Assembly: GCA_949293555.1 (NCBI GenBank)
Contig: CASFDV010000001.1
Location: 12,590-76,589, forward strand
Reading direction: 5' to 3'
Length of the DNA: 64,000 bases
Source: an uncultured Bacillota bacterium
GTDB lineage: Bacteria > Bacillota_I > Bacilli_A > RFN20 > CAG-826
Shown: positions 3,522-31,511 of the stretch, in pieces
How positions within the stretch are numbered: the stretch's first letter is position 1
How the letters are laid out: each line of letters starts with the position of its first letter
The notes under the pieces: model-generated
Told to the model about the DNA's origin: nothing
Databases searched by the model: none
Seen by the model: only the letters and a program-made list of their open reading frames with translations
Position numbers and translations under genes: made by a program

Positions 3522-4385
3522 ACAACGCCTTCTTTCGAAAGCCCAGCGAGTTTATACCTCGCCCCTGGCCGACGCAACCCCCCAACTTGACGAAAGTGAG
3601 GCCGCCTTAAGCAGGGCGGCCAAGGGCAAAGGCCGCAAGGAAAGGGTTGGCAACCGGCCAAAGTGCCTCTTCCTTTGCTTCACGGGCGATTGTCGAGATT
3701 CCAAAGGATATCCCACCCTTCAGGCTTGGCGCTGGCACAGCAACGGGTCAAATAGGTATCGCAGCCCCTGAAGGCCAGCGGGCCGATACAAGAGAGACAA
3801 TGGAATCTTGATCTCGAGAAGTCTGGCGCTGCTCCCAAAAGTCGAAGAGAGGATTGACTTGAGCGAGGAGGAAGGCTTCTCGGACTCAAGGCGCACGCGC
3901 CTATCGCAAGGCGAAGGACTCGATGATGGTCAACGACCCGGGAATCGCAACGGTCTTCAAGCCGAGGTCATGCCAGAATGCTGCGTTGCGAACAGTGATC
4001 CCCGGAACTTTCGCCACCATAAGGGACCCATGACGGAATGTCCGGAGAAGATCACCTTTGAGGCCCTTCCTATAGTGCCTTGAGGTGTTCTGGATGTCCG
4101 CGGAAGGTTTCGAAGGCGTCGTCCTATTCCCCGCCAAGAAGCATCATTTCGGTATGCCAGCCGTTGCCCTGATGTCGTTATCTCCAAGGGAAAGCGCATG
4201 AGCGGCAGTTTCTCCTCGAAGCCCTCCGGCTCCGCGGAAAAGCCTCTTTTCTCGTCTTTGAAAATCAAGAATCCGAAGCCTTTGCACGGGATTGCGGAAA
4301 CCGCGTCCTTCGTTTCGTTCATAAGCGCCTCTAACAAGGCTGGACTTGGCAGACATTAGGAAACCCGAACAATGTCTCTAACAGG

Positions 4386-4718
4386 CTAGATCTTCTTCAG
4401 GCGGTCGTACTTGAGGGCCGATCCCCTGGCAAGCTCCGGAGGATACTTCTCCCGGTTCTTTTGCATCTTCTTTTGAAACGCCTCGACGGGGTCGATGCCC
4501 ATCTTGTCGAAGAGCTGGAGAAGATAGGCGAGGACGTCGGAGGCCTCCTCCGCGACACGTTCCTTGTCGGCCTCGCCCGACCACTGGAAGCATTCGAGCA
4601 GCTCCCCCGCCTCGATGGCGACGGACTTGGCAAGGTTCTCCGGGGAATGGAACTGGTCCCAGTCCCTTTCCGCGGTGAACTCCCGAAGATCCTGGATCAT
4701 GTCCTTGATATCGCTCAT
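4386..4718 (-). CDS. MazG-like nucleotide pyrophosphohydrolase (small all-alpha NTP-PPase)
   Basis: MSDIKDMIQDLREFTAERDWDQFHSPENLAKSVAIEAGELLECFQW...EEASDVLAYLLQL, with the ExxE/ExxD metal-binding motifs. Start taken at internal ATG 4718. Confidence 0.6.
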   Translation of the reverse strand: MSDIKDMIQDLREFTAERDWDQFHSPENLAKSVAIEAGELLECFQWSGEADKERVAEEASDVLAYLLQLFDKMGIDPVEAFQKKMQKNREKYPPELARGSALKYDRLKKI

Positions 4719-4780
4719 GGGGACACTATATAGCGAGATGACTGCGGAAGTGACATCGCCATCGATATAATGGCTCCAGC

Positions 4781-5551
4781 ATGAAATTCGCCACATTCAA
4801 CGTGAATGGCATCCGCGCGATCCTCGGGAAGGGGTTCGCGGATGCCTTCCGCGCGATCGACGCGGACCTCTTCGCCCTCAACGAGACCAAGTGGAGCGAC
4901 GACTCCCCTGGCTCATTCCCCTTCCAGCCGGAGGGGTACGAGACCTACTTCACGAACTCCAAGGCCAGGAAGGGCTACTCCGGGGTCGCCGTGTTCGCAA
5001 GAAATAGGCCGCTATCCGTCCATTACGGGCTCCTCGACGGGAAGTATGACGAAGAAGGGAGGGTGATCACCCTTGAGTATCCTGCCTTCTATTTCGTCGC
5101 CGCCTATGTCCCCAACGCTGGAGACGGGCTGAAGAGGCTTTCCTTCCGGATGCAGTACGAGCTTGATCTGCTTGATTACCTAAATGCGCTGAAATCGAAA
5201 AAAGAAGTCATCTATTGCGGGGATTTGAACGTCGCCCACGAACCGATTGACCTAAGGAACCCAAAGCAGAACGAAGGAAATCCCGGCTACACGAAGGAAG
5301 AAAGGGACTCCTTCTCGCGCCTCCTCCAGAACGGCTACCACGACGTCTGGAGGGAACGCAATCCCGACCGGGCCCAGTACAGCTGGTGGAGCTATCGCTT
5401 CCACGCCCGCGAGAAGAACATTGGCTGGAGGATCGACTACTTCGTCCTGACCGAAGGGCTCGTCCCCCTCGTCAGGGACATCCGGATACTGGACGAAGTG
5501 ATGGGCTCCGACCACTGCCCGGTCGTAATGGAGGCGGACATCGATGCTTGA
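4781..5551 (+). CDS. xth: exodeoxyribonuclease III
   Basis: MKFATFNVNGIRA...AYVPNAGDGL...YCGDLNVAHEPIDL...WWSYRFHAREKNIGWRIDYFV...SDHCPV. Classic EEP/ExoIII motifs. Confidence 0.85.
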   Translation: MKFATFNVNGIRAILGKGFADAFRAIDADLFALNETKWSDDSPGSFPFQPEGYETYFTNSKARKGYSGVAVFARNRPLSVHYGLLDGKYDEEGRVITLEYPAFYFVAAYVPNAGDGLKRLSFRMQYELDLLDYLNALKSKKEVIYCGDLNVAHEPIDLRNPKQNEGNPGYTKEERDSFSRLLQNGYHDVWRERNPDRAQYSWWSYRFHAREKNIGWRIDYFVLTEGLVPLVRDIRILDEVMGSDHCPVVMEADIDA

Positions 5552-6959
5552 GCGTATCTTCCATCTGAAGGAAAGGGGCTCTTCCCTCAAGGGAGAGCTT
5601 ATCGGAGGACTCGTCACCTTCGCCTCCATCGTCTACATCCTCCCGGTGAACGCCGCCCTCCTATCGAGCACCGGGATGGACTCCGGCGGCGTCTTCTTCG
5701 CGACCGCTCTCGTGAGCTTCCTCTGCTGCCTTCTCATGGGCTTCCTGGCGAACTACCCGCTCGCCCTGAGCGCCGGCATGGGGATGAACGCCTATCTCAG
5801 CTACACCATCTGCGGAACGATGGGCTTCGACTGGATCGAGGCGATGATGCTCCTCACCGTGAACGGAGCCCTCTTCATGGTCCTCACCCTCACCCCGCTC
5901 CGCGCTTGGATCGTGAACGCGATCCCCAAGGGACTTCGCTCGGCGATCTCGATCGGGCTAGGAGGATTCATCCTCTTCGTCGGACTCCAGGGCGCGGGGA
6001 TCATCGCCGACAGCAGCACACTCGTGACCCTCGGGGACTTCAGTTCCCCCGGGGTGCTCCTGGCCTCCTTCGGGATTCTCCTCGCCGCCGGGCTCATGGC
6101 GTTCAAGAAGATTCCCCTCCTCTCACAACTGGCAATTCCTATCTCGATCGTCGTGACCGCGCTCGTCGGGGTCATCGCCTCCTTGAGCCTCGGGGCCTCG
6201 GGGAGAGGCGAGTTCGCCGCCCTTTCGGGCCTTCCTCTCGCCCCTTGGGAAGACCCTTCCGCCTTCTGGGGCGTGAGCGGATTCGACAAGGTGCTCTTCT
6301 TCGGGGCGCTGGATCCCGCCAACGGAAGCGTCGACTACGGGGAGAAGATCGTCTCGCTCCTTGCCAATCCCCAGACCTACGTCGCCGTCTTCACCCTCAT
6401 CTTCGTCAACATGTTCGACACGACCGCGACGATGCTCACCGCCGGGAAGCACTGCGGGCTCATCGGGGAGGACGGGGAACTGAAGGGAGGGAGGAAGGCG
6501 ATGGTCGCCGATGCCTTCGGCGCCCTCGTCTGCGGTCCCCTGGGCACCTCCACGGTCACCTCATTCGCCGAGTCCACCATCGGCATCTCCCTCGGGGCCA
6601 AGACCGGGTTGAGCGCCGTCCTCGCCGGCTTCCTCTTCCTCGTCTCGGGGCTCGCCTTCCCCATCTTCTCCGTCTTCTCCTATAGCTCGGTGAACGCGGT
6701 CGCCCTCGCCGGCGTCGGCCTCCTCATCATGTCGGGCTCCCTTCCCGAGCTTGCCAAGGAAGACGCGACAACCCTTGTCTCGGGCATCCTCCTCTTCCTT
6801 TCGATGATCCTGACCTATTCCCTCTCGAACGGCCTCGCGATCGGGATCCTCTGCTACATCGTGATGCGCCTCTTCGAGGGAAAGGCGAAGGAAATCTCGA
6901 TCCCCGTCTACGTGATGGGGGCGATCTTCCTTGCGAGCTTCGTCATCTCCTCCCTATAG
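5544..6959 (+). CDS. NCS2 (AzgA/PbuG-type) purine permease (hypoxanthine/guanine/adenine)
   Basis: MLERIFHLKERGSSLKGELIGGLVTFASIVYILPVNAALLS..., typical PbuG/AzgA N-terminus with 12-14 TM segments. Overlaps the xth stop by 8 nt. Confidence 0.8.
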   Translation: MLERIFHLKERGSSLKGELIGGLVTFASIVYILPVNAALLSSTGMDSGGVFFATALVSFLCCLLMGFLANYPLALSAGMGMNAYLSYTICGTMGFDWIEAMMLLTVNGALFMVLTLTPLRAWIVNAIPKGLRSAISIGLGGFILFVGLQGAGIIADSSTLVTLGDFSSPGVLLASFGILLAAGLMAFKKIPLLSQLAIPISIVVTALVGVIASLSLGASGRGEFAALSGLPLAPWEDPSAFWGVSGFDKVLFFGALDPANGSVDYGEKIVSLLANPQTYVAVFTLIFVNMFDTTATMLTAGKHCGLIGEDGELKGGRKAMVADAFGALVCGPLGTSTVTSFAESTIGISLGAKTGLSAVLAGFLFLVSGLAFPIFSVFSYSSVNAVALAGVGLLIMSGSLPELAKEDATTLVSGILLFLSMILTYSLSNGLAIGILCYIVMRLFEGKAKEISIPVYVMGAIFLASFVISSL

Positions 6960-7014
6960 GAAGGCTTGGCAATGGAAAAGGCGGGGACAGCCTTCCCCGC
7001 CTTTCCTTTGCCCG

Positions 7015-8064
7015 TCAATCGTTGACCAGGGTGATGGTGGGCGACACCCCCGGGGTCTCGAGCAGGAGGAAACCGTCCAGGAGCTCGTTCCTCGCCCCTC
7101 CCACGTTCTGGCCGACCCAGTCGTTCACGTGGAGCCCGACCATCGTGGTCGCCCTGTCGGGATAGTAGGCGGCGCTCACGAGGTAGGTGTGTCCCACCGC
7201 ATAGTCGAAGGAGTAGGTCCCGTCCTGCAGCTCGTCGAGCCACACGGTGTGGATCTCCTTCGTGCTGGAGCCGTAGATGTAGTCCTGGTCGCTGATGTTC
7301 ACGAAGACGTCGGTGTCGTAGGAGGAGCGGTTCTCGAAGGTGACCTCGACCTCCATCGTCTCAATCTCGAGCTCCCCGTAGGGGACGACCTCGATCTTGC
7401 GGATGAGGGTCCCGAGGCTGCTGTTGTTGGGGTCGAGGTGCAAATAGACGAGGCACTCCCCTGCCTTCACCTGCTTGAGGTCGACCTCGAGGTAGCCGCC
7501 GACGATGGAGTTCCCCGTGGAAGCGGTCACCGGGACGAAGTCGATCGCGTCCAGGGGGATGACCTCGGGGTCGCTCACGTCGATGGTCGCCTCGACGGAA
7601 CTGACATAGGTCCCGGAGCTGATGTTATGGAAAGCAAGGGGGATGTCCGTGGCCACGTCCCAGCTCGCCCCCTTGTCCGCCTCGCTCGCCTCGGAGATCC
7701 TCCCGTCGAAGGAAGCGCCCCACGAGAGGTTGTCGTCGGGGTCGTCGTAGCTCTCGACGAGGCTCGTCTCCACGGTGATGAGGACGTCCTCGGAAGGCAT
7801 CGTGAAGCGGTAGCCAATCCCCGTGTCGAAGATCTCCTCCCCGTTCATGTAAACGGCGTCCACCGAATGGAAGACGCTGACGATGTCGAGGTCGAAGTAG
7901 ACGGGATCCCCCTCCATCGCGCTTTCGGGAAGGTTCGTGATGAGGTATCCCTCCCCCTCCTCCCAGTCGATGGCGTGGCGCGGGGCGCTGGAGATCTCCT
8001 CCCCGCCACAGGAAGCGAGGGCGAGGAGAGGGATGAGGCATGCTAGGACGGCGTTCTTGCGCAT
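7015..8064 (-). CDS. acidic lipoprotein of unknown function
   Basis: Signal peptide plus lipobox LALASCGG. Highly Asp/Glu-rich mature region. No recognisable catalytic motif. Confidence 0.55.
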   Translation of the reverse strand: MRKNAVLACLIPLLALASCGGEEISSAPRHAIDWEEGEGYLITNLPESAMEGDPVYFDLDIVSVFHSVDAVYMNGEEIFDTGIGYRFTMPSEDVLITVETSLVESYDDPDDNLSWGASFDGRISEASEADKGASWDVATDIPLAFHNISSGTYVSSVEATIDVSDPEVIPLDAIDFVPVTASTGNSIVGGYLEVDLKQVKAGECLVYLHLDPNNSSLGTLIRKIEVVPYGELEIETMEVEVTFENRSSYDTDVFVNISDQDYIYGSSTKEIHTVWLDELQDGTYSFDYAVGHTYLVSAAYYPDRATTMVGLHVNDWVGQNVGGARNELLDGFLLLETPGVSPTITLVND

Positions 8065-21954: not shown

Positions 21955-22479
21955 CTACCTCTTGGTGATCCGGAGGAACTCGAACACCCTCGTCTTGATG
22001 ATCCTGTCCGCGAGGAAGCCCGTCGCGAGGCCGGTGAGAAGGCTCGTGAGCCCCATCAGGGGGAAGTACCAGAGGACCGCGGAGGTCCCAAGGAGCGGGA
22101 TCGCGACGAGGATCTGCCCGAGCGAATGGAAGAAGGCGCCGAGGAGGGAGGCCCCGTAGATGGTGAACACCTTGGAGAAGGCCCCCTTCACGAGAAGCAT
22201 CGCCAGGTAGGAAAGGACCCCTCCGGCAAGGGACATGTAGAAGGGGAAGCTCAGGATCCGGCCCGTCATGAGGGAGGCGAGGAAGATCCTCCCGAGGTCG
22301 ACGATGAGCGCCTCCTTCCACGAGAACTGGTATATGAGGAGGAGGATCACGATGTTCGCGAGCCCCGGCTTGAAGCCCGGGACCGCGGATATGGGGATGA
22401 AGCTCTCGGCGATCGAAAGGGCGAGGGCGAGGGCGAGCATCGCCGCGTCGGCCGCCATCCTCCTTACGCTCCCCTTCAT
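21955..22479 (-). CDS. Gx transporter family protein (PF07456; historically annotated 'heptaprenyl diphosphate synthase component I')
   Basis: Small polytopic membrane protein (about 5 TM helices; ...PGFKPGLANIVILLLIY...). Start overlaps the upstream gene's stop. Conserved neighbour of ApbE/NusG_II in Bacillota. Confidence 0.6.
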   Translation of the reverse strand: MKGSVRRMAADAAMLALALALSIAESFIPISAVPGFKPGLANIVILLLIYQFSWKEALIVDLGRIFLASLMTGRILSFPFYMSLAGGVLSYLAMLLVKGAFSKVFTIYGASLLGAFFHSLGQILVAIPLLGTSAVLWYFPLMGLTSLLTGLATGFLADRIIKTRVFEFLRITKR

Positions 22480-22949
22480 ATGATGATGTCAGGGCCGCTT
22501 TGGGAACCGAGGGCCCCATCCTCCTTGGCGAACTCCACGCGGACGTGGTTATAGGCGCAGACGATCGGACGCCTCACGTCCATCGTGTAGCCGAGGCCGA
22601 CGCAGTACTGGGAAGGGCATCCCGACTCGAGGACGGCGACCCCTTCCGCAGAAAGGGCGAGGGTCATCGGGGTCATCGCCCCCTGGATGCGGTACGCCTT
22701 AAGGGCCTCTTCCCCATAAGGGGACGGATCCACTTCTTGCACGTCTTTCGAAAGGACTTTGGATAAAGAAGGCTCCTCCAGATTCAAGGAAAGAAGCCTC
22801 TCTTCGTCCCGATAGACGATGGCTTCTTCGAAATCGCCCTCAGGAGCGAGGATCGCACCGATCGTTCCTCCGAGGAGGGCGAGGAAGAGCGCTAGGAAAA
22901 GGACGATGTCCCCTAGATGCTTCCTGAGGCCCTCCTTGAGGGCCATCAC
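22476..22949 (-). CDS. NusG domain II-containing protein (DUF1312-like), membrane-anchored
   Basis: N-terminal TM helix then a small beta domain with CPSQYCV...RPIVCAYNHVRVEF, matching the NusG_II family usually found between apbE and the Gx transporter. Confidence 0.5.
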   Translation of the reverse strand: MMALKEGLRKHLGDIVLFLALFLALLGGTIGAILAPEGDFEEAIVYRDEERLLSLNLEEPSLSKVLSKDVQEVDPSPYGEEALKAYRIQGAMTPMTLALSAEGVAVLESGCPSQYCVGLGYTMDVRRPIVCAYNHVRVEFAKEDGALGSQSGPDIII

Positions 22950-24034
22950 TTCACCTCTTCAAGAGGGAAGCCTTCGCTTTGATAGACGAAGGGATCCTCC
23001 CTTCTCTCGTCATAGAGGAACATTTCGTATCCCATCCCTTCGATTTCCGCAATCTTGGCCTCCTCCCCCCTCATGAGAAGGTAGGTGCTGAGGACATCGC
23101 ACCAGCCGGCATCATCCCCGATCACAACCGCGGTGGTCAAAGCGGGGACGGCGCTCCCGTCCATGGGATCGACGACATGGGAATACAAGGTCCCGGTCGT
23201 CTCGTCGACCTTGTGCTGGAGGGTGGTCGCGCTCGTCCCGACGGAACGGTCTCGGACCCGGAAGCCGTACCCTTCCACGTCGGCGAGTCCGATCAGGAAA
23301 GTCCCGTCCTCGGCAAGGGGGTTCGTCCCGAAAGAGAGGGAACTCCCGCCTGCGTTGAGGAGGAAGTAGCGGTTTCCTTCTTCAAGAAGACGTTCCCGCA
23401 CTCTCGCGAGAGCGTACCCCTTCCCCATCGCTCCGAAGTCAAGAAGGGCGTCCCCTGCCTTCGTCACATATGCGGCCCCCTCACCTACGGAAAGGGCAAG
23501 GCTGCTTCCGTGGATTCTGTCGACTTCCGCGGATATCTCTTCCTTCGTCGGAAGCCGGGCGTCCTCCCCCTCGTTATTTACCCAGAGGTCCTTCCAAAGG
23601 TTCGCGAGCCCCCCGGAAAGGATGTCGATCGCGCCCTCGGTGAAGTCCTTGGCCTCTTCGGCGAATTCCAGAAGGCCTTGGAAGAAGCCATCGAGAGGAA
23701 ACGTTCCTTCTTCCTCGCTCAAGAGGAGCGCGGTCGTCTTCCCCTGCATGTCGCCCCAGCGAAGGTCTGTCTCCATGTAATGCGACATGTGCGCGAAAGA
23801 ATCGGAAATTTCCTCGTAAAGGCCATCTTCCGCCTTTCCTTTCTCATGGAAGAAGCGGAATTCTGAGAAGGCGCCGAAGGAAAGGTAATCGAAGACAGAC
23901 GAAGCGGTCCACTCCTTCCCGACCCAGTCGTTCCCGCTGCCCGTGGACTGTTGGGAGGTGGAGGAAGAGCTGCCTCCCGGAATCTCGCAAGCGAGGAGAA
24001 GCGGCACGAAAAGAAGGGCAAGGGACTTTTTCAT
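22946..24034 (-). CDS. apbE: FAD:protein FMN transferase (flavin transferase ApbE), lipoprotein
   Basis: Start at internal ATG 24034: MKKSLALLFVPLLLAC lipobox. ApbE fold motifs (...GAMGKGYALARV..., ...VIGDDAGWCDVLST...). Confidence 0.8.
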   Translation of the reverse strand: MKKSLALLFVPLLLACEIPGGSSSSTSQQSTGSGNDWVGKEWTASSVFDYLSFGAFSEFRFFHEKGKAEDGLYEEISDSFAHMSHYMETDLRWGDMQGKTTALLLSEEEGTFPLDGFFQGLLEFAEEAKDFTEGAIDILSGGLANLWKDLWVNNEGEDARLPTKEEISAEVDRIHGSSLALSVGEGAAYVTKAGDALLDFGAMGKGYALARVRERLLEEGNRYFLLNAGGSSLSFGTNPLAEDGTFLIGLADVEGYGFRVRDRSVGTSATTLQHKVDETTGTLYSHVVDPMDGSAVPALTTAVVIGDDAGWCDVLSTYLLMRGEEAKIAEIEGMGYEMFLYDERREDPFVYQSEGFPLEEVK

Positions 24035-24094
24035 ACGGCGGATTCTAGATTGTCCTGGCTTGTTTCTCAACGGAGGGCGGGAATGGGGAGGAAA

Positions 24095-24130
24095 AGGCAA
24101 AGAAAAAGGCCTCCCTTCCGGAAGGCCTCC
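24095..24130 (-). terminator. intrinsic terminator between rnfB and apbE
   Basis: Minus-strand RNA forms a GGAGGCCUUCCGGAAGGGAGGCC hairpin followed by UUUUUCUUUGCCUUUU. Confidence 0.45.
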
Positions 24131-24133
24131 TGC

Positions 24134-24481
24134 TCATTCCTCTTCCTCGTAGACGGGCTCGGGATGCTCTTTGAGGTAGAGGAGGATGGGGTCGAAGTTC
24201 TTCTCCTTCTTCCCCGGGCGGCAGAGGGCGGGGTCCTTGACCTCGCCGGAGACGAGCTTTTCCGCCATCTCCTGGCAGCCGGCGTTCCCGCAGGCGCCGC
24301 AGTCGATCCCGGGGAGGAGCTTCTTCACCTCCCCCACCCTCTTGTCCTCCTTCACCTTGAAGACGACGCTGAAGAGGCAGAGGAGGAAGGCGAAGATCGC
24401 CCCGAGGGCGAGAAGCACCAGGAAGCTATAGAGGATCGCCATCCCGTTGTCGAAGGCCATGTCCAGCAGGCTCATGTCCAT
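24134..24481 (-). CDS. rnfB: RnfB-like subunit reduced to the N-terminal membrane-anchored Fe-S domain (no ferredoxin domains)
   Basis: TM helix, then LPGIDCGACGNAGCQEMAEK...ALCRPG. Compare E. coli RsxB [20 protein letters not shown]...CAPGG. The protein ends at 115 aa with no CxxCxxCxxxCP ferredoxin motifs. Confidence 0.6.
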   Translation of the reverse strand: MDMSLLDMAFDNGMAILYSFLVLLALGAIFAFLLCLFSVVFKVKEDKRVGEVKKLLPGIDCGACGNAGCQEMAEKLVSGEVKDPALCRPGKKEKNFDPILLYLKEHPEPVYEEEE

Positions 24482-24484
24482 TTC

Positions 24485-24706
24485 TCACTCCTTCTTCCCT
24501 TCTTCAGGGGGATTCTCATTTTCCTTTGGCCGGTAGAGCCGGCAGCCGGCGTTCTTGCAGCCGATGCAGTCCGTCTCGTCCTTCCGCACCCTCTCGCATC
24601 CCTTGGGAGGCTTCGTCCTCATGTACCAGACGAAGCTTCCGAGGAAGAGGAGGGCGAGGAGGACGACGATGGCGATCGCCAGGCCCCTGGCCGTGGCCTC
24701 GTCCAT
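24485..24706 (-). CDS. small membrane-anchored Cys-rich protein (second RnfB-N-domain-like mini-subunit)
   Basis: 73 aa. TM helix then CERVRKDETDCIGCKNAGCRLY (C-x8-C-x2-C-x4-C), resembling the CGACGNAGC cluster motif of the adjacent rnfB. Translationally coupled: TAG-ATG after rnfA, 3-nt gap before rnfB. Confidence 0.45.
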   Translation of the reverse strand: MDEATARGLAIAIVVLLALLFLGSFVWYMRTKPPKGCERVRKDETDCIGCKNAGCRLYRPKENENPPEEGKKE

Positions 24707-25291
24707 CTAGGCGATGCCCTGGAGCCCCATGAAGGCGAGCGCCATGAGGGCGGCGGTCACCATCGCGATGGGGATGCCCTTGAGGGCGCGGGGGGTCTCG
24801 GCGCTCTCCAGCCTCTCGCGGATGAGGGCGAAGAGGACGATCACGAGGAGGTAGCCGAGCGAAGTCCCGATCGCGTTCCCCATCGAGCTCAGGAAGTCGA
24901 GCCCCTGGTCGGTGTTCCCCTGGGCGACCCCGAGGACCGCGCAGTTGGTGGTGATGAGGGGGAGGTAGATCCCCAGTCCCTTGTAGAGCGCGGGCGAGGT
25001 CTTCTTGACGAAGATCCCCACGAGCTGCACGAGGGAGGCAATGACGAGGATGTAGACGATGGTGTCGAGGAACTCCATCTTCGCCGGGACGAGGACGTAG
25101 TTATATAGAGGCCAGCAGACGAGGCTCGCCAGCACGATGACGAAGGTCACCGCGAGGCCCATCGAGAAGGCCGGCTTGACCTTGCTCCCGGTCCCGAGGA
25201 AGCTGCAGATCCCGTAGAAACGGGCGAGGACGACGTTGTCGATGAGAGAGCTCGTCAGTACGGCGAGGAGGAAGGCGACGATGTATTCCAT
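24707..25291 (-). CDS. rnfA: Rnf electron transport complex subunit A
   Basis: ...KTSPALYKGLGIYLPLITTNCAVLGVAQ...LIRERL...AFMGLQG, canonical RnfA/NqrE. Confidence 0.85.
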   Translation of the reverse strand: MEYIVAFLLAVLTSSLIDNVVLARFYGICSFLGTGSKVKPAFSMGLAVTFVIVLASLVCWPLYNYVLVPAKMEFLDTIVYILVIASLVQLVGIFVKKTSPALYKGLGIYLPLITTNCAVLGVAQGNTDQGLDFLSSMGNAIGTSLGYLLVIVLFALIRERLESAETPRALKGIPIAMVTAALMALAFMGLQGIA

Positions 25292-25294
25292 GGG

Positions 25295-26020
25295 CTAGTT
25301 CGCTCCTTCCTGGGCCGCGGCCCTCTTCTTGGCGAGGAGGGCGTCCACCCTCGCCTTGTCCCTCTTATGGATGTCGATCGCGGCGATGATAGCAAGGGCG
25401 ATCCCCAGCACGAGGAAGCCCCCGATCGAACGCTGGAAGAACTCGATCGAGAGGTCGTAGACCCCGTCGACCTTCAGGAGCGGGAGCGAGTACTCCGGGA
25501 TGAAGGTGAACACCTTCCCGAAGGTGAGCTGCCCCGTCCCGAGGATCTCCCTCACCAGGGCGATGAGGCAGATGGCCCAGCCGAAGCCGATGCCGTTCCC
25601 GAGGGCGTCGAGGGCGCTGTTGAGCACCGTGTTCTTCGAGGCGTAGGCCTCGCTCCTCCCCAGCACGATGCAGTTCACGACGAGGAGGGAGAGGAAGACG
25701 CCGAGCGAGGTGTATAGCTCCGGGAGGAAGGCCTCGCAGAGCATCTTCACCACCGTGACGAAGGTGGCGATGATGACGATGTAGCAGGGCGTCGTGATCT
25801 CTTCCGGGATGAGCTTCCGGAGGAGCGAGACGCAGACGTTCGACCCCAGGAGCACCAGGGTGAAGAGTATCGCCATCCCGAAGGCGCTCTCGAAGGAGGT
25901 CGTGACGGCGAGGGCCGGGCAGAAGCCCAGGAGGGAGACGAAGAGGGGGTTGGCCTTCCAGATTCCGGAGACGAAGGCCTCCTTCCTCTCTCCCCGCATG
26001 TCGATAGCCTTGTCCGCCAT
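25295..26020 (-). CDS. rnfE: Rnf electron transport complex subunit E
   Basis: ...ANPLFVSLLGFCPALAVTTS...LLVVNCIVLGRSEAYA..., canonical RnfE/NqrD. Confidence 0.85.
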   Translation of the reverse strand: MADKAIDMRGERKEAFVSGIWKANPLFVSLLGFCPALAVTTSFESAFGMAILFTLVLLGSNVCVSLLRKLIPEEITTPCYIVIIATFVTVVKMLCEAFLPELYTSLGVFLSLLVVNCIVLGRSEAYASKNTVLNSALDALGNGIGFGWAICLIALVREILGTGQLTFGKVFTFIPEYSLPLLKVDGVYDLSIEFFQRSIGGFLVLGIALAIIAAIDIHKRDKARVDALLAKKRAAAQEGAN

Positions 26021-26023
26021 ATC

Positions 26024-29000
26024 CTAGAGCGCGAGGAGCGCCTCCACCTCGGCGGGGACGTCGCCAAGGTAGTCGGCCTGGGCGTCCTCGATCCCGGACT
26101 CGATCCATCCGAGCTCGGAGGCGATGGGGCTCTCCGAAGGAATCTCCGGGATGGCCTTGCTGGAGTTCAGTTGCTCCACCCATGTGGTGAGGGCAGTCAG
26201 GTTCTCGCCCTCGAGCGTCGTGTTCACGACCTCGAGCCCGATGATCTCGGCGTCCTCGCCGAGGGCGACGTAATAGAGGTTGTCATCGCCCGTGCTCCCG
26301 GCCTTGAACTCGTAGACGCGGCCGATCTCGGCCTCGCTTTCGTCAAGGGCGCTCCAGTAGCCGGTCGCCTGCCAGACGGCGGAAAGCTCGACGAAGGCGT
26401 TCCAGGAGTGGGCCTCGGGGATGAGCGCCTTGACGCTCTCGGGGATGTTCGTCGGAACGACGGGTTCCGAAGGATCGACGACCTGGTCGGGATTCGCCTC
26501 GTAGTGGGCCAATGCCTCGGCGATCGCGTCATGCGCGATCACGATGCCGACGGTCCCGCTCGAGGGCTCGTAGCCATCGGTGTCCTCGTAGGAGCCGCCT
26601 CCGTTCACCGACTCGATGTATCCGTCCGTCCCGTCCGGACGGCTCTGCTCGTTGACGAGGGCGACGACCTTGCCGATGGTGCCGTCGGCGTTCACGCCGA
26701 TGAGGAGCTGGAGGTCGCCCCACTTTCCGCCGACGTTCGTCGTGTTCGTGAGGTAGCCCCTTCCGAGCACCTCGCCGGACTCGTTCTTCACCTCGCGGTA
26801 GGAGTGGAGGTAGGTCCCGCCTTCGACTTTCTGGGAGGAGCTGACGGAATAGGAGCCATCCCAGAGGGCGAGGTAGGGAGACTCGACGGTCTCCTTCTCA
26901 TAGGCGAGGGCCGCGTCGATGTCCGCGGCGATCTGATAGGCGGCTTGCTCGACGCCGGAAGTGGCGATGTCCTCGCGGTAGTCGGCGGTCCCGTCGTTGA
27001 TCTTGGCGATCCAGCTCTCGACGCCCGCAAGATAGGCGCTGTCCCAGTCCCCGCTCACGAGGCTGAGGGCGAAGCTCCCGTCCTGCTCCACGAGGATGAC
27101 GAGATCGTAGTCCCCGTCGCTCGCGGCGCCCGAGAGATAGTAGGAGGCGCCCTCTTCGACGCCATCCGCGTCGAGGACGCCCATGCGGGCGATGATGTTC
27201 CCTTCGTTGATGATCGCGGGCTCGCCCCAGCCTTCGGCCTCGGGGAGAGCGTCCGCCATGGCCTTCGTGATCTCGGCGGGGAGGTTCGCGACGCCGGTGT
27301 AGTCCCCGATGGCCTCGGCGATCGCGTCATGGGCGATCTCGATGCCGACGGTCCCGCTCGAGGACTCGTAGCCGAAGATGTCCTCGTAGGAGCCGCCGCC
27401 GTTGACGGACTCGATGTAGCTGTTGGTCCCGTCCGGGCGGCTCTGCTCGTTGACGAGCGCGACGATCGAGGAAATCTCGCCGTCCGGCTCGATGCCGATG
27501 AGGAGCTGGAGGTCGCCCCAGCGGCCTCCGACGTTCGTGGTGTTCGTGAGGTAGCCCCTTCCGAGCACCTCGCCGGACTCGTTCTTCACCTCGCGGTAGG
27601 AGACGATGTACTCATAATCGCCGCTGAGGGCGACTTCCTCGCCGACCGTAGCGGCGTTCCGGAATAGGCTCAGGTATTTCTCAGTCAGGTCGACGACCGT
27701 GCCGGTCGCGTAGCCCTTGGCCTCGGAGACGATGTTCCGGATGAGGGTCGCGGAGACGGTCGCCCCGGTGGTCGTGCCGCCGTCGATCGTCGCGCTCCCG
27801 CCGTTGATGGAGTCGATCCAGGCGGAGATGACCTCCTCGGTCCCGATGGGGTTCCCGCCGGAGTAGTCCTCGAGCGAGAGCCCCGTCACCTCGCCCTCGG
27901 GAGTGAGCCCGACGAGGATCGCCACATGGACGCCGTGCTGGTTCGTGCCCTCGCCGTAGTAGGCGGTCCCGAGGAGGGCGCCCCCGGCGTCCTTCACCTC
28001 GCGGGAGGCCTTGACGTACTCGCCCTCCAGGGCGGCCTCGGCACCGACCGAGGAGGCCCCCTCGAAGAGGGACTTCGCCTCGTCCTCGCCGATGACGGAC
28101 TCGACCGGGGCGGGGCCGGTGTAGTCGGCGACGGCCTCGTCGATGATGGCCTTCATGGTGATGTAGGAGGCCGTGGCGGTCGGGCCGGACTCGATGGAGC
28201 CGGTGCCGTCGTTGACGGAGTCGATCCAGGCCTGGACCCCCGTGAGGGTGCCGCCGGGGCCCATCGCGTCGCCGCTCGTCGCGGAGTAGTCCTCGAGGAA
28301 GAGCCCGGATACTTCCCCGTCGGTAGTGACGCCGACGAGGAGGGCGATGTTGACCTCGAAGGTGTTGTGGCCGGATCCGCGATAGGCGCGGCCGAGCACG
28401 TTCCCGGAGGCGTCCTTCACCTCTCGGTAGGAGCTCAGGTAGGTCTTGCCTTCGAGCGCGACCTCCTCCCCGACGGAGGAGGCGCCTTCAAAGAGGTCGA
28501 GGTACTTCTGGTCGGGGTCGACCGGCCCGGGCGGGACGTCCCCGTTCTCGTAGAGGTCGAGCGCCTCGGCGACCATCTCGCGGACGACGGAGGCGGTGTT
28601 GGTGGCGCCGGTGGTGGTGCCGCCGTCGATCGTCGCGGAGCCGTCGTTGATGGACTCGATCCACGCCTCGACGGTCGCGTTGTTGCCTCCGGTGTTGTCC
28701 GGCCCGTAGGCGACGATCTCGATGTGGGCGAGGCCGTCCGCGTCGACGCCGATGAGGAGGTCGACGGTCGCGCCGAACCCCGTGGCTCCCACCGCGTGGT
28801 ACACCTTGCCGATCTCGTTCCCGGAGCCGTCGAGGGCGCTCTTGTACGTCTCGATGTAAGTGCCGCTGGAGACCTCGGTCTCATCGCCGAAGGAGGCGGC
28901 GTCGGGGAAGCAGGCGTAATAGGCCTCGTTCTCCTTCCGATCGTTGTTCTCTCCGATGATGTCCGCGGTGAAGTAGTTCACCGTCCCGATGAGGGCGCCC

Positions 29001-29071
29001 GCCCCGCCGCCGATGAGGGCAAGGACGGCGACGACCGAGAGAACGTGCTTTGCGTCGAGCTTGATCTTCAT
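26024..29071 (-). CDS. rnfG: Rnf subunit G expanded to ~1015 aa with multiple tandem FMN-binding domains
   Basis: N-terminal signal-anchor TM plus a canonical RnfG/NqrC FMN_bind domain (..DGGTTTGATNTASVV..). Then at least five further FMN_bind-like repeats, each with a flavinylation-type [ST]G[AV][TS] motif (SGPTATAS, GGTTTGATVSAT, SSSGTVGIEIAHDAI, IATSGVEQAAY, PSSGTVGIVIAHDAI). Sits between rnfD and rnfE with ATGA start/stop overlaps. Confidence 0.8.
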   Translation of the reverse strand: MKIKLDAKHVLSVVAVLALIGGGAGALIGTVNYFTADIIGENNDRKENEAYYACFPDAASFGDETEVSSGTYIETYKSALDGSGNEIGKVYHAVGATGFGATVDLLIGVDADGLAHIEIVAYGPDNTGGNNATVEAWIESINDGSATIDGGTTTGATNTASVVREMVAEALDLYENGDVPPGPVDPDQKYLDLFEGASSVGEEVALEGKTYLSSYREVKDASGNVLGRAYRGSGHNTFEVNIALLVGVTTDGEVSGLFLEDYSATSGDAMGPGGTLTGVQAWIDSVNDGTGSIESGPTATASYITMKAIIDEAVADYTGPAPVESVIGEDEAKSLFEGASSVGAEAALEGEYVKASREVKDAGGALLGTAYYGEGTNQHGVHVAILVGLTPEGEVTGLSLEDYSGGNPIGTEEVISAWIDSINGGSATIDGGTTTGATVSATLIRNIVSEAKGYATGTVVDLTEKYLSLFRNAATVGEEVALSGDYEYIVSYREVKNESGEVLGRGYLTNTTNVGGRWGDLQLLIGIEPDGEISSIVALVNEQSRPDGTNSYIESVNGGGSYEDIFGYESSSGTVGIEIAHDAIAEAIGDYTGVANLPAEITKAMADALPEAEGWGEPAIINEGNIIARMGVLDADGVEEGASYYLSGAASDGDYDLVILVEQDGSFALSLVSGDWDSAYLAGVESWIAKINDGTADYREDIATSGVEQAAYQIAADIDAALAYEKETVESPYLALWDGSYSVSSSQKVEGGTYLHSYREVKNESGEVLGRGYLTNTTNVGGKWGDLQLLIGVNADGTIGKVVALVNEQSRPDGTDGYIESVNGGGSYEDTDGYEPSSGTVGIVIAHDAIAEALAHYEANPDQVVDPSEPVVPTNIPESVKALIPEAHSWNAFVELSAVWQATGYWSALDESEAEIGRVYEFKAGSTGDDNLYYVALGEDAEIIGLEVVNTTLEGENLTALTTWVEQLNSSKAIPEIPSESPIASELGWIESGIEDAQADYLGDVPAEVEALLAL
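26514..27602. repeat. intragenic tandem duplication in rnfG: 291-nt segments 26514..26804 and 27312..27602 (period 798 nt, roughly 85-90% identical)
   Basis: Nearly identical runs, e.g. GAGGTAGCCCCTTCCGAGCACCTCGCCGGACTCGTTCTTCACCTCGCGGTAGGAG in both copies. Corresponds to repeated protein blocks YREVKNESGEVLGRGYLTNTTNVGG[RK]WGDLQLLIG...SSGTVGI.IAHDAIAEA. Confidence 0.6.
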
Positions 29072-30210
29072 TTGACTTTACCTCCGAAGATGATTCCGAT
29101 GACGATGAAGAGGATGTCGGCGAGGAGGATGAGGCCGATGGTCAGCCACTTCTTCCACGTCCACCGGGACGAGGCCACCTTGTGGTGGTCGAGGACCGGG
29201 GTGATGAGGTTGGCGAGGAGGATCGAGTAGCCGACCCCCTCGGGCGCCGAGGCGAAGAGACGGATGAGGACGGTGAGGGAGGCGGCGGAGAGGGCGTAGA
29301 TGTAGCGCCCCGGCTTCGTCGCCGGCATCGTGACCGGGTCGGTCAGCATGAAGGTCGCCCCGAAGAGCATGCCTCCCGCGAGGAACTCGACCCCGATGAA
29401 GTGCCAGATGTCGAAGTCCTTGACGATGCCGCCCCCGGCGATCGCGATCCCCGCGATGGCGATGAGGGCGGTGAAGGCGCCGACGTAGGTGAAGGTCACG
29501 CGCCAGTCGATGGCCTGGCGGAGCAGGAGGTAGAGGAGGCCGACGAGGATGAGCACCTTGCACACCTCGCCCATCGCCCCCTGGGTCCTGCCGAGGAAGA
29601 GGTCGAGGAGGGAGACGTCCATGAGGGAGGAGTAGCCGCCCTGGATCGTGCCGGAGAGGACAGTGCCCCCGGTGACGACGTCGACCATCGTCCCCTCGCC
29701 CCAGGGGATGGCGGGGTAGCTCATCGTGTTCGAGAAGCTGAGGCGCGTGAGGATCATGCCCACGGCGGCGGGGTTGAAGATGTTCTGCCCGAGGCCCCCG
29801 AAGAGGAGCTTGCCGAAGATGATGCCGGCGAGCGCCCCGACGAGGACGCCCCACCAGCTCGTGGTGGGCGGGAGGCACATCCCGAAGATGAGGGCGGAGA
29901 CGGCGGGCGCCACGGCGTTCACCGGGCGGTACAGCTTCAGCGCGTGGAGGAACTTCTCCTTGAAGGGATGCTTCTCCCCGTCGTAGGGCATCCGCCCCTT
30001 GATCATGACGAAGACCCATTCGGCGATCATCATCGCCGGGACCGCGATCCCGAACACCTTGAGGGCGTCGAGGCGATAGACGATGAAGGAGAAGATGAGG
30101 AGGGGCAGGAGGGCGAGGAGGACGTCGAGCATCATCCTCGTGGCGCTGTCCTTCCTCCGGACGTGCGGGCTTGGCTCCTGGAGGAGCCGCATGGTGTTCT
30201 CTTCGCTCAT
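29068..30210 (-). CDS. rnfD: Rnf electron transport complex subunit D
   Basis: ...GGLGQNIFNPAAVGMI...FMLTDPVTMPAT... (NqrB/RnfD family with the conserved TDP flavinylation region). Confidence 0.85.
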   Translation of the reverse strand: MSEENTMRLLQEPSPHVRRKDSATRMMLDVLLALLPLLIFSFIVYRLDALKVFGIAVPAMMIAEWVFVMIKGRMPYDGEKHPFKEKFLHALKLYRPVNAVAPAVSALIFGMCLPPTTSWWGVLVGALAGIIFGKLLFGGLGQNIFNPAAVGMILTRLSFSNTMSYPAIPWGEGTMVDVVTGGTVLSGTIQGGYSSLMDVSLLDLFLGRTQGAMGEVCKVLILVGLLYLLLRQAIDWRVTFTYVGAFTALIAIAGIAIAGGGIVKDFDIWHFIGVEFLAGGMLFGATFMLTDPVTMPATKPGRYIYALSAASLTVLIRLFASAPEGVGYSILLANLITPVLDHHKVASSRWTWKKWLTIGLILLADILFIVIGIIFGGKVK

Positions 30211-31511
30211 GAAAGACGCGCGATGCGCTTTGCCCTCCTTACGTACTCGGTGACGTTGATGCGGCTCGTGCAGCTATAGGCGCAGAGCCCGCATTCGACG
30301 CAGCGCTCGGGGTGGAGCGCCTTGACCCTCTCCTTGTCCCCGCTCTTCACCGCCTGGGCGATGAGGACGGGCATGAGGTGGGTCGGGCAGCTGTAGACGC
30401 AGGAGCCGCAGCGGACGCAGCTATCGGCGGTCCACACCTCCTCGTCCATCACGAGGATGGAGGTGACGGTGGGGGTGAGGATGATGTCGTCATCTGCCAC
30501 GGTGTTCCCCATCATGGGGCCGCCCATGATGAGGCGCTTCTTCTTCCCGGAATCGGTATACCCCCCGGCAAGCGGGAGAAGGTCCCGGAGGGGGGTCCCG
30601 ATCCGCGCCTTGAGGAACTTCTGCTCGTTCACCCCGTCCCCGTGGATCTGCACGTAGCGCGAGAGGAGGGGCATCCTCTTCTTCGCGGCGAGATAAAGGG
30701 AGTAGATGGTGGCGACGTTGTACTCGAGGATCCCGAACTCCGCGGGGAGATGGCCGCTCGGGATGTCGACGCCCGTTGCGGTCTTGATGCAGGCGACCTC
30801 CCATCCCTGGGGATAGAAGTTCCAGACCGGGGCGAAGGAGATGCCGGAGCCCTCCTCGCCGGCGAGGGCGCTCGACCAGCATTCCGCGAGGTCCTTGTAG
30901 ATCCACTTCGCGCAGATCTTCCCTTCCTTGGCGCCGGTGGCCCTCATGAGGAGGCGGAGCCCCTCGATGATCTCGCGGGGGTGCTCCAGCATGAGGCGGT
31001 GGTCGCTTGCCAGCGAGGGCTCGCACTCGACCCCGTTGATGACGATGGTGTGGATCTGATGGTCCCCCTGGAGCTTCACGTAGCTCGGGAAGGAAGAGCC
31101 GCCGAGGCCGACGAGGGCCATGTCCCGCATGATGGCGAGGACATCCTCCTTCGTCAGGGCCTTGAGCTCCTCCTCGCTCCTCTCCTTGAGGGAAGGATCC
31201 GGCTCGTCCTTGAAGTCGTTCTCGATCTTCAGGAACTCGCACTCCTTCCCCGTGTGGTGGAGGTGCTTCTCGATCCCGAGGTAGGTGCCGGAGCAGGTGG
31301 ATACGATCGGCTGCTCGAAGAAGGGTCCCTTCCGGAGGCCGAGGCGCTCCCCGACCCTCACATGGTCCCCCTCCTTCACGGAAAGCTCGTAGGAGGCGCA
31401 GCGGCCGTTCGTGCCTGCGACGTAGCAGTACTTGGGCAAAGGCGCCTCTTCCAGTTCCTGATGGGCGAGGAGGACGTTGGGCAGCTCGATGTGACGTGCT
31501 TTCGCAATCAT
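30207..31511 (-). CDS. rnfC: Rnf electron transport complex subunit C (NADH-binding, 2x[4Fe-4S])
   Basis: ...GLGGSSFPSYVKL... and CVRCGSCVYSCP / CVECGLCAYSC ferredoxin motifs. RBS AAGGAAACGGG. Confidence 0.85.
   Translation of the reverse strand: MIAKARHIELPNVLLAHQELEEAPLPKYCYVAGTNGRCASYELSVKEGDHVRVGERLGLRKGPFFEQPIVSTCSGTYLGIEKHLHHTGKECEFLKIENDFKDEPDPSLKERSEEELKALTKEDVLAIMRDMALVGLGGSSFPSYVKLQGDHQIHTIVINGVECEPSLASDHRLMLEHPREIIEGLRLLMRATGAKEGKICAKWIYKDLAECWSSALAGEEGSGISFAPVWNFYPQGWEVACIKTATGVDIPSGHLPAEFGILEYNVATIYSLYLAAKKRMPLLSRYVQIHGDGVNEQKFLKARIGTPLRDLLPLAGGYTDSGKKKRLIMGGPMMGNTVADDDIILTPTVTSILVMDEEVWTADSCVRCGSCVYSCPTHLMPVLIAQAVKSGDKERVKALHPERCVECGLCAYSCTSRINVTEYVRRAKRIARLS

Follow-up and report, generated by a model that had tools for sequence, protein, structure and literature searches.

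A conserved small cysteine-rich membrane protein encoded between rnfA and a short rnfB in Mollicutes-related Bacillota

Rnf has a central place in the energy conservation and redox balance of anaerobes, and its subunit list (RnfABCDEG, with RnfH in addition in proteobacteria) and cofactor chain were recently fixed by cryogenic-electron microscopy. A 64-kb stretch of DNA from an uncultured Mollicutes-related member of the Bacillota (contig CASFDV010000001.1, positions 12,590–76,589, hereafter the window) contains an rnf operon that raises two questions: whether a complex with an RnfB of only 115 amino acids, lacking ferredoxin-type modules, still takes electrons from ferredoxin, and what is made of a 73-codon open reading frame (ORF), here called miniX, that stands between rnfA and rnfB. 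The original prediction, made from these letters, took the lost modules as a sign that a ferredoxin module is supplied in trans or that electrons are used differently, and drew in an exceptionally large RnfG to picture a path from NADH to extracytosolic flavins. Here, we find that the short RnfB is an already known, functional and widespread variant of the type seen in Thermotoga maritima. The part that appears to be new is miniX, a conserved and so far undescribed gene by which this clade has extended its Rnf operon.

The operon holds a complete set of Rnf genes, recognized by matches to hidden Markov models (HMMs), in the order rnfC-D-G-E-A-miniX-B, all on the minus strand. A second contig, CASEPN010000001.1 (‘uncultured Firmicutes bacterium’, 728 kb, locus L007), is 96% identical and belongs to the same species. 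Both small ORFs were found where the original prediction had placed them, with these features:

24,485–24,706, minus strand: miniX, 73 amino acids; a single transmembrane (TM) helix and a C-x9-C-x2-C-x4-C motif; no family above threshold
24,617–24,685, minus strand: TM helix of miniX, about residues 8–30; helix at residues 3–30 in the AlphaFold2 model, with a predicted local distance difference test score (pLDDT) of 89–98
24,542–24,598, minus strand: four-cysteine motif of miniX (C37, C47, C50 and C55)
24,488–24,493, minus strand: Shine–Dalgarno sequence AAGGAG of rnfB, inside the 3′ end of miniX (...GAAGGAGTGAGAAATG)
24,134–24,481, minus strand: short rnfB, 115 amino acids; a TM helix and the FdI [4Fe-4S] domain only; PF04060, E = 1.9e-10
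24,224–24,304, minus strand: FdI cluster motif of RnfB (C60-x2-C63-x4-C68-x17-C86)

MiniX is a genuine gene. The GC content of its three codon positions (0.57, 0.43 and 0.85) is like that of the adjacent genes, and its homologues are spread over genomes of 28–62% GC. Between the window and the conspecific locus L007, miniX has changed by four synonymous differences, one non-synonymous difference and a two-codon insertion or deletion in the tail. It is also tightly packed between its neighbours: the stop codon of rnfA is followed by the start codon of miniX with no gap (TAG-ATG), the junction with rnfB reads TGA-GAA-ATG, the last triplet being the rnfB start, and in the loci of relatives the start and stop codons of miniX abut or overlap those of the adjoining genes.

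The family to which miniX belongs is large and nameless. A word-indexed profile search gave 104 clusters, which lack a Pfam domain of their own; any that bear a name are called ‘hypothetical’. The lone exception, P0083, is a dubious fusion that owes a PF04060 match to its RnfB part. An exhaustive HMM search covering 1.84 billion representatives retrieved 396 members (clusters at 50% identity, E ≤ 1e-3). Lengths range from 49 to 95 amino acids among 150 listed members of the 396, and miniX is therefore a stand-alone small protein. No NCBIfam or Pfam model matched it above threshold.

The position of the gene is constant. We scanned all ORFs of at least 35 amino acids from 90 sources with the miniX HMM; 41 sources gave exactly one match each, and all 41 matches lie on the strand of rnfA and rnfB, between these two genes. 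Short RnfBs are encoded in 43 of the 84 rnf loci that could be classified, and miniX accompanies 36 of these 43, as against 0 of the 41 loci with a long RnfB, so that the pairing of two small proteins noticed in the window is indeed kept in relatives. Carriers of miniX are found among the Acholeplasmataceae, Anaeroplasmataceae and Erysipelotrichaceae (including the human-associated Solobacterium and Bulleidia), Izemoplasma-like metagenome-assembled genomes (MAGs) and RF39-like gut bacteria. Published work seems to have passed the gene over. The genome paper of Peloplasma aerotolerans lists Rnf proteins MDI6452236-38, 240-41 and 243 and gives the operon as rnfCDGEAB; the accession between RnfA and RnfB is skipped in this list.

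The shared architecture of the family consists of a TM helix, the segment N-(K/R)-K-T-P-x-P-(K/E)-G-C-E, a spacer of 6–9 residues and C-x2-C-x4(5,7)-C. In a 29-sequence alignment C47, C50 and C55 are invariant and C37 is nearly so; in a 58-sequence alignment C47 and C50 are invariant and the C55 column is divided by misalignment. The original prediction had described the product as an extra cysteine-rich component, which is plausible, and had correctly seen the CxGCKNAGC core that it shares with RnfB; the first cysteine spacing, given as eight residues, is in fact nine. The common C-x2-C-x4-C, or ‘NAGC’, core reads CIGCKNAGC in miniX and CGACGNAGC in RnfB, and comparison of miniX with short RnfB by hhalign (probability 87.9%, E = 3.2e-6) aligned both this core and the TM helix. 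MiniX may thus be descended from a duplicated RnfB N terminus. Because conserved basic residues (K/R) directly follow the TM helix (NKKTPxPKGCE), the positive-inside rule predicts that the C terminus with its cysteine motif faces the cytoplasm, an orientation that would put the first cysteine about seven residues from the membrane surface. The miniX profile found nothing significant among PDB sequences. Its best matches were at chance level: a designed peptide gave E = 0.35, and phthalate dioxygenase reductase, through its plant-type [2Fe-2S] loop, gave E = 0.8.

An unusual member of the family was met in locus L087, where a 135-amino-acid ORF (P0083, positions 5,177–5,584) carries miniX in frame with an RnfB that has no TM helix of its own. 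If real, this fusion would suggest that miniX and RnfB are physically close.

The short RnfB, in turn, has the TM helix and FdI cluster that had been described for it, and no ferredoxin-type modules. Its Pfam match is to PF04060 ‘FeS’ alone (40.7 bits, cut-off 23), and in comparisons with the NCBIfam RnfB/RsxB models every model was matched over positions 3–80 or so only, at scores under the full-length cut-offs; TIGR01944, for example, reached 48.5 bits (cut-off 68.7) and was covered over positions 7–80 of 190. A CxxCxxCxxxC motif is present neither in RnfB nor in any frame downstream. The columns of C60, C63, C68 and C86 are invariant in the family alignment. The AlphaFold2 model (pLDDT 77) comprises a long N-terminal helix (residues 3–39) and a small helical domain, and its top Foldseek matches are the RnfB of Acetobacterium woodii (9eri_B) and the N-terminal 4Fe-4S domain of the corrinoid iron-sulfur protein (CFeSP). 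Likewise, the family profile aligns with residues 4–79 of the solved RnfB chains of A. woodii, Clostridium tetanomorphum (7zc6_B) and Azotobacter vinelandii (8ahx_B), the anchor helix corresponding to residues 4–30. Of the parts that make up a canonical RnfB/RsxB, then, the protein retains the anchor, FdI (C-x2-C-x4-C-x16/17-C) and the position after rnfA, and lacks the C-terminal array of two to seven ferredoxin-type clusters. All 17 clusters of homologues of the short RnfB measure 99–126 amino acids. The hosts of the 43 short-RnfB loci are mainly Acholeplasmataceae, Anaeroplasmataceae, Erysipelotrichaceae (Bulleidia, Solobacterium), ‘Tenericutes bacterium MO-XQ’ and Izemoplasma-like and RF39-like Bacilli MAGs, with one member of the Thermotogota.

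This build has a biochemically studied counterpart. The RnfB of T. maritima, with 10.56 kDa, has FdI only and one predicted 4Fe-4S centre (Kuhns et al. 2020, PMC7414866; Vitt et al. 2022, PMC9588780); like the window protein it consists of an N-terminal TM helix and a single CxxCxxxxC...C [4Fe-4S] domain without ferredoxin-type modules, and it is the product of the last gene of rnfCDGEAB. Kuhns et al. raised the question of whether so short an RnfB would take clostridial ferredoxin (PMC7414866), and the purified complex proved active as an Fd (Clostridium pasteurianum):NAD+ oxidoreductase and also transports Na+ (PMC7414866; PMC9588780). An FdI-only RnfB works with ferredoxin, and the missing modules therefore do not imply a changed electron donor, contrary to what had been suggested for the window. 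A short RnfB alone is accordingly not new; the present loci show that the minimal, Thermotoga-type RnfB is widespread. The Thermotogota locus in our set (L049) encodes a 95-amino-acid RnfB of the same TM and FdI build. Two differences set the window apart: in the Thermotogota operon no gene separates rnfA from rnfB (the gap is 9 nt), and the window RnfB ends in a clade-specific tail, CRPGKKEKNFDPIxxYLxxHP.

The other genes of the operon, and those that follow it, are:

30,207–31,511, minus strand: rnfC, 434 amino acids; NADH/FMN module and C-terminal 2x[4Fe-4S]; TIGR01945, E = 4e-92, 309 bits (cut-off 246)
29,068–30,210, minus strand: rnfD, 380 amino acids; PF03116, E = 7.4e-76
26,024–29,071, minus strand: giant rnfG, 1,015 amino acids; N-terminal TM helix and about seven FMN_bind-like modules, counted by eye
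25,295–26,020, minus strand: rnfE, 241 amino acids; PF02508, E = 1.1e-56; both cluster-ligand cysteines visible (GFCPALAV, VVNCIVLG)
24,707–25,291, minus strand: rnfA, 194 amino acids; PF02508, E = 7.8e-56; both cluster-ligand cysteines visible (GICSFLG, TTNCAVLG)
22,946–24,100, minus strand: apbE, flavin transferase lipoprotein, 384 amino acids; PF02424, E = 3.6e-30
22,476–22,949, minus strand: NusG_II-domain membrane protein, 157 amino acids; PF07009, E = 2e-6, slightly under the gathering score
21,955–22,479, minus strand: PF07456 (Hpre_diP_synt_I / ECF-S-like) membrane protein, 174 amino acids; PF07456, E = 4.2e-37

RnfC thus keeps the NADH and 2x[4Fe-4S] features ascribed to it, with two CxxCxxCxxxC motifs; no other ORF in the six frames of the window has such motifs. 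By analogy with T. maritima, we infer that the complex of the window is still a ferredoxin:NAD+ oxidoreductase and ion pump, or runs in reverse. A soluble ferredoxin would reduce the single FdI cluster of the short RnfB directly. FdI, which has been described as a mobile element handing electrons to the RnfA/E [2Fe-2S] cluster (PMC12174285), would pass them to this intramembrane cluster, from which they would reach the flavins of RnfG and RnfD and then, via RnfC, NAD+, in a reversible reaction coupled to ion translocation.

We lean, with modest confidence, towards the reading that miniX is a small stoichiometric accessory subunit of this complex, binding a metal or an Fe-S centre beside RnfA, RnfE and RnfB on the electron-input side. 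Its centre would sit at the cytoplasmic membrane face, next to these subunits. If so, the model of electron input into Rnf would have to be altered for a large clade. In a bolder version, which we consider unlikely, miniX would be a seventh, redox-active subunit whose own Fe-S cluster, anchored at the cytoplasmic face of the membrane, acts as a docking or relay site for ferredoxin or as a gate for FdI access to RnfA/E, in place of the lost FdII/III; were it true, a new cofactor-bearing subunit would have been added to a complex with a supposedly closed inventory.

Several observations weigh against this picture of the complex and of miniX. The first cysteine is missing in three family members (L006, L009 and L026), and in the AlphaFold2 model of miniX the TM helix alone is confident, the cysteine-rich part having a pLDDT of 31–60. 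The TM helix and the low-complexity cysteine content both push up the hhalign score against RnfB. The fusion P0083 was discounted as ‘Rosetta-stone’ evidence; the L087 scaffold contains a stretch of N, its rnfE is frameshifted, and the fusion may be an assembly artefact. Seven short-RnfB operons (L032, L038, L042, L043, L049 from the Thermotogota, L052 and L056) lack miniX and have rnfB immediately after rnfA; an FdI-only RnfB therefore does not generally need miniX. Phylogeny, moreover, confounds the association of miniX with short RnfB, since the carriers all fall within a single broad lineage. Neither ferredoxin nor pyruvate:ferredoxin oxidoreductase genes were found in the 64 kb of the window.

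Some of the same facts would suit a helper protein better than a subunit. NqrM (DUF539, PF04400) is a maturation factor of Na+-NQR and the proposed iron supplier for the cluster between NqrE and NqrD, the homologues of RnfA and RnfE. Kostyrko et al. in 2016 reportedly described NqrM as combining one TM helix with four conserved cysteines, an architecture with which that of miniX, likewise a small single-pass membrane protein with four cysteines, agrees. An NqrM-like role, in which miniX as a Cys4 peptide would deliver iron or an Fe-S cluster for the RnfA/RnfE [2Fe-2S] centre, is a tentative possibility that we take seriously. Like nqrM, which is co-transcribed with the apbE gene of the homologous complex, miniX shares an operon with apbE, and it directly follows rnfA, whose product is one of the two subunits that hold the cluster. 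A helper could also be dispensed with more easily than a redox subunit, as miniX is in some lineages with short RnfB, and could more easily do without one cysteine, as in three members. The likeness is, however, one of architecture only. PF04400 is absent at E ≤ 10 from the full match list of the window miniX (29- and 58-member scans) and is not among the 25 families most matched by the 58 members at the same threshold; with no HMM signal, membership of miniX in the NqrM family was rejected. Gene position differs as well, nqrM lying downstream of nqrABCDEF-apbE and outside the structural genes, whereas miniX is wedged between two of them, in an Rnf rather than an NQR operon, its start and stop codons being coupled to, or overlapping, those of its neighbours. 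Furthermore, other bacteria build their Rnf complexes with no factor of this kind. Should miniX prove to be an assembly factor, Rnf would gain its first counterpart of NqrM, and heterologous production of the complex would be made easier.

A distant resemblance to another family bears on the same question. PF12669 comprises membrane-anchored cysteine-rich peptides tied to iron handling, with a Cx3-5Cx2-3Cx6-8C motif (PMC8749426). These proteins, common in Firmicutes and encoded beside a membrane complex that handles iron, resemble miniX in size (about 50–70 amino acids) and in having a TM helix and a cysteine-rich tail. The PF12669 model gives the window miniX 13.9 bits (E = 0.068, gathering threshold 27) and matches 28 of the 58 miniX members weakly (best E = 4.4e-4), all under the gathering score, which speaks in a small way for a role in iron or cluster delivery. 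The miniX family spacing, in contrast, is C-x6-9-C-x2-C-x4-7-C, and its context is rnf, whereas PF12669 proteins are encoded after, or fused to, feoB.

Two further small proteins were considered. RseC has the motif C-x5-C-x2-C-x5-C, which resembles the motif of Acholeplasma-type miniX. In RseC/MucC the cysteine-rich N terminus comes first and two TM helices follow, whereas in miniX one TM helix precedes the cysteine motif; PF04246 was matched by only 2 of the 58 members at E = 3.2, which is noise, and a relation was dropped. A regular-expression search of the fetched loci found no RseC-like ORF upstream of rnfC. RnfH, an extra subunit of proteobacterial Rnf that has no cofactor and no homologous subunit in other complexes (PMC12174285, Table 1), offers a precedent for a lineage-specific small component encoded with the operon. 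It is cofactor-less, whereas miniX is a Cys4 membrane peptide, and from these descriptions the two are presumably unrelated.

A quite different proposal, close to the picture drawn in the original prediction, is that the complex no longer uses ferredoxin and instead moves electrons from NADH, at RnfC, to extracytosolic flavins or acceptors by way of the giant RnfG, the two small proteins being otherwise employed or the ferredoxin module being supplied in trans. RnfG is indeed giant, as had been noticed. PF04205 (FMN_bind) matches the protein as a whole (E = 2e-5) with no single stretch passing alone, and TIGR01947 (rnfG) matches residues 16–138; self-BLAST gave no internal high-scoring segment pairs. 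At least two of its modules carry canonical TGAT flavinylation motifs, at residues 154 and 435 only, and the others are degenerate. Multi-domain, multi-flavinylated RnfGs in RNF clusters are published, and a second path to extracytosolic acceptors has been proposed for them (Méheust et al. 2021, PMC8238504); the window RnfG, encoded in an RNF cluster, is probably likewise a multi-module FMN_bind protein, differing in that only two modules have the canonical flavinylation motif. An extra outward electron branch via RnfG is possible in the window organism. An apbE gene and a possible flavin-export pair lie 3′ of the operon, and the related operons L022–L024, which seem to have lost even the NADH module of RnfC, indicate that this clade does remodel electron entry.

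As a replacement for the ferredoxin reaction, however, we judge the proposal quite improbable. Besides the activity of the T. maritima complex with an FdI-only RnfB, the window keeps RnfA, RnfE and RnfB, the whole ferredoxin-side path, which would be needless for a pure route from NADH to the outside. The order rnfA-miniX-short rnfB does occur beside large RnfGs (993 amino acids in L001, 1,543 in L002 and 1,114 in L007), but also beside ordinary ones of 175 amino acids in L003 and 187 in L004, and further loci likewise have RnfGs of ordinary size. As the pair occurs with ordinary and with giant RnfG, the two features are independent, and the link once drawn between them does not hold. The L007 ORF (positions 4,117–7,461), set against the 1,015 amino acids of the window protein, suggests that the number of RnfG modules varies within a species. 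Nor did a supplier in trans come to light: a six-frame motif search of the window found no polyferredoxin, and in the flanks of the 43 short-RnfB operons, out to about 9 kb, no such gene is conserved either.

In two short-RnfB operons without miniX, L032 (15,498–15,665, minus strand) and L043 (15,798–15,980, minus strand), a clostridial-type 2x[4Fe-4S] ferredoxin of 55–60 amino acids is encoded about 6.5 kb away. It could be a soluble redox partner.

That the two small ORFs are debris of a decayed or frameshifted full-length rnfB, or that the 73-amino-acid frame arose by chance, is refuted by the comparative data and can be set aside as having practically no chance of being right, for although both ORFs share a frame in the window, with TGA-GAA alone between them, miniX and rnfB overlap in different frames in relatives, the RnfB stop codon TGA stands at the same position as in homologues, each ORF has its own TM helix so that a fused product would be topologically impossible, both families are conserved over a wide range of GC content and sequence divergence, codon-position GC is typical of coding sequence, and no downstream frame holds a ferredoxin motif, in keeping with the view of the original prediction that these are separate genes.

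The genes 3′ of the operon recur in relatives. ApbE also follows rnfB in L001–L004, L006–L010 and other loci, the NusG_II-domain gene is kept 3′ of apbE in related loci, and the PF07456 gene (‘heptaprenyl diphosphate synthase component I’) is kept 3′ of that; in the window, as in most loci with miniX, the trio (21,955–24,100) stands after rnfB. It resembles a flavinylation module attached to the operon, possibly one that also exports flavin. The true start of apbE is likely near 24,034, at the MKKSLALLFVPLLLAC signal.

At the other end of the operon, the gene in the rnfC position is strongly reduced in three loci, L024 (4,441–4,707), L022 (4,490–4,738) and L023, where it encodes 82–88 amino acids comprising only the C-terminal 2x[4Fe-4S] domain. 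It is followed by rnfD, an RnfG gene of 481–490 codons, rnfE, rnfA, miniX and a short rnfB, and in L024 purA and purB lie directly upstream of it. The NADH/FMN module of RnfC seems to be absent from these loci, which, if true, would make theirs an Rnf-like complex without an NADH site.

The window has a GC content of 62%, and most of its genes reach 0.9–0.97 at third codon positions, whereas locus L001 has only 38% GC. Yet L001 shows the same local order (LacI ... rnf ... apbE-NusG_II-PF07456-DegV), and its RnfB is 72% identical to that of the window, so that a very large compositional shift separates these relatives. Elsewhere in the window, ARAGORN identified a tRNA-Ile gene with the anticodon UAU (18,659–18,734) adjoining genes for tRNA-Met and tRNA-Ala. 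This anticodon is uncommon in bacteria, in which AUA is usually decoded by lysidine-modified CAU. Flanking the tRNA cluster, between 14,744 and 20,336, are genes for several large, acidic, Ser/Glu-rich predicted lipoproteins whose signals end in ...LLASC or ...LALSSC; such lipoproteins are typical of wall-less or Mollicutes-like surface proteomes.

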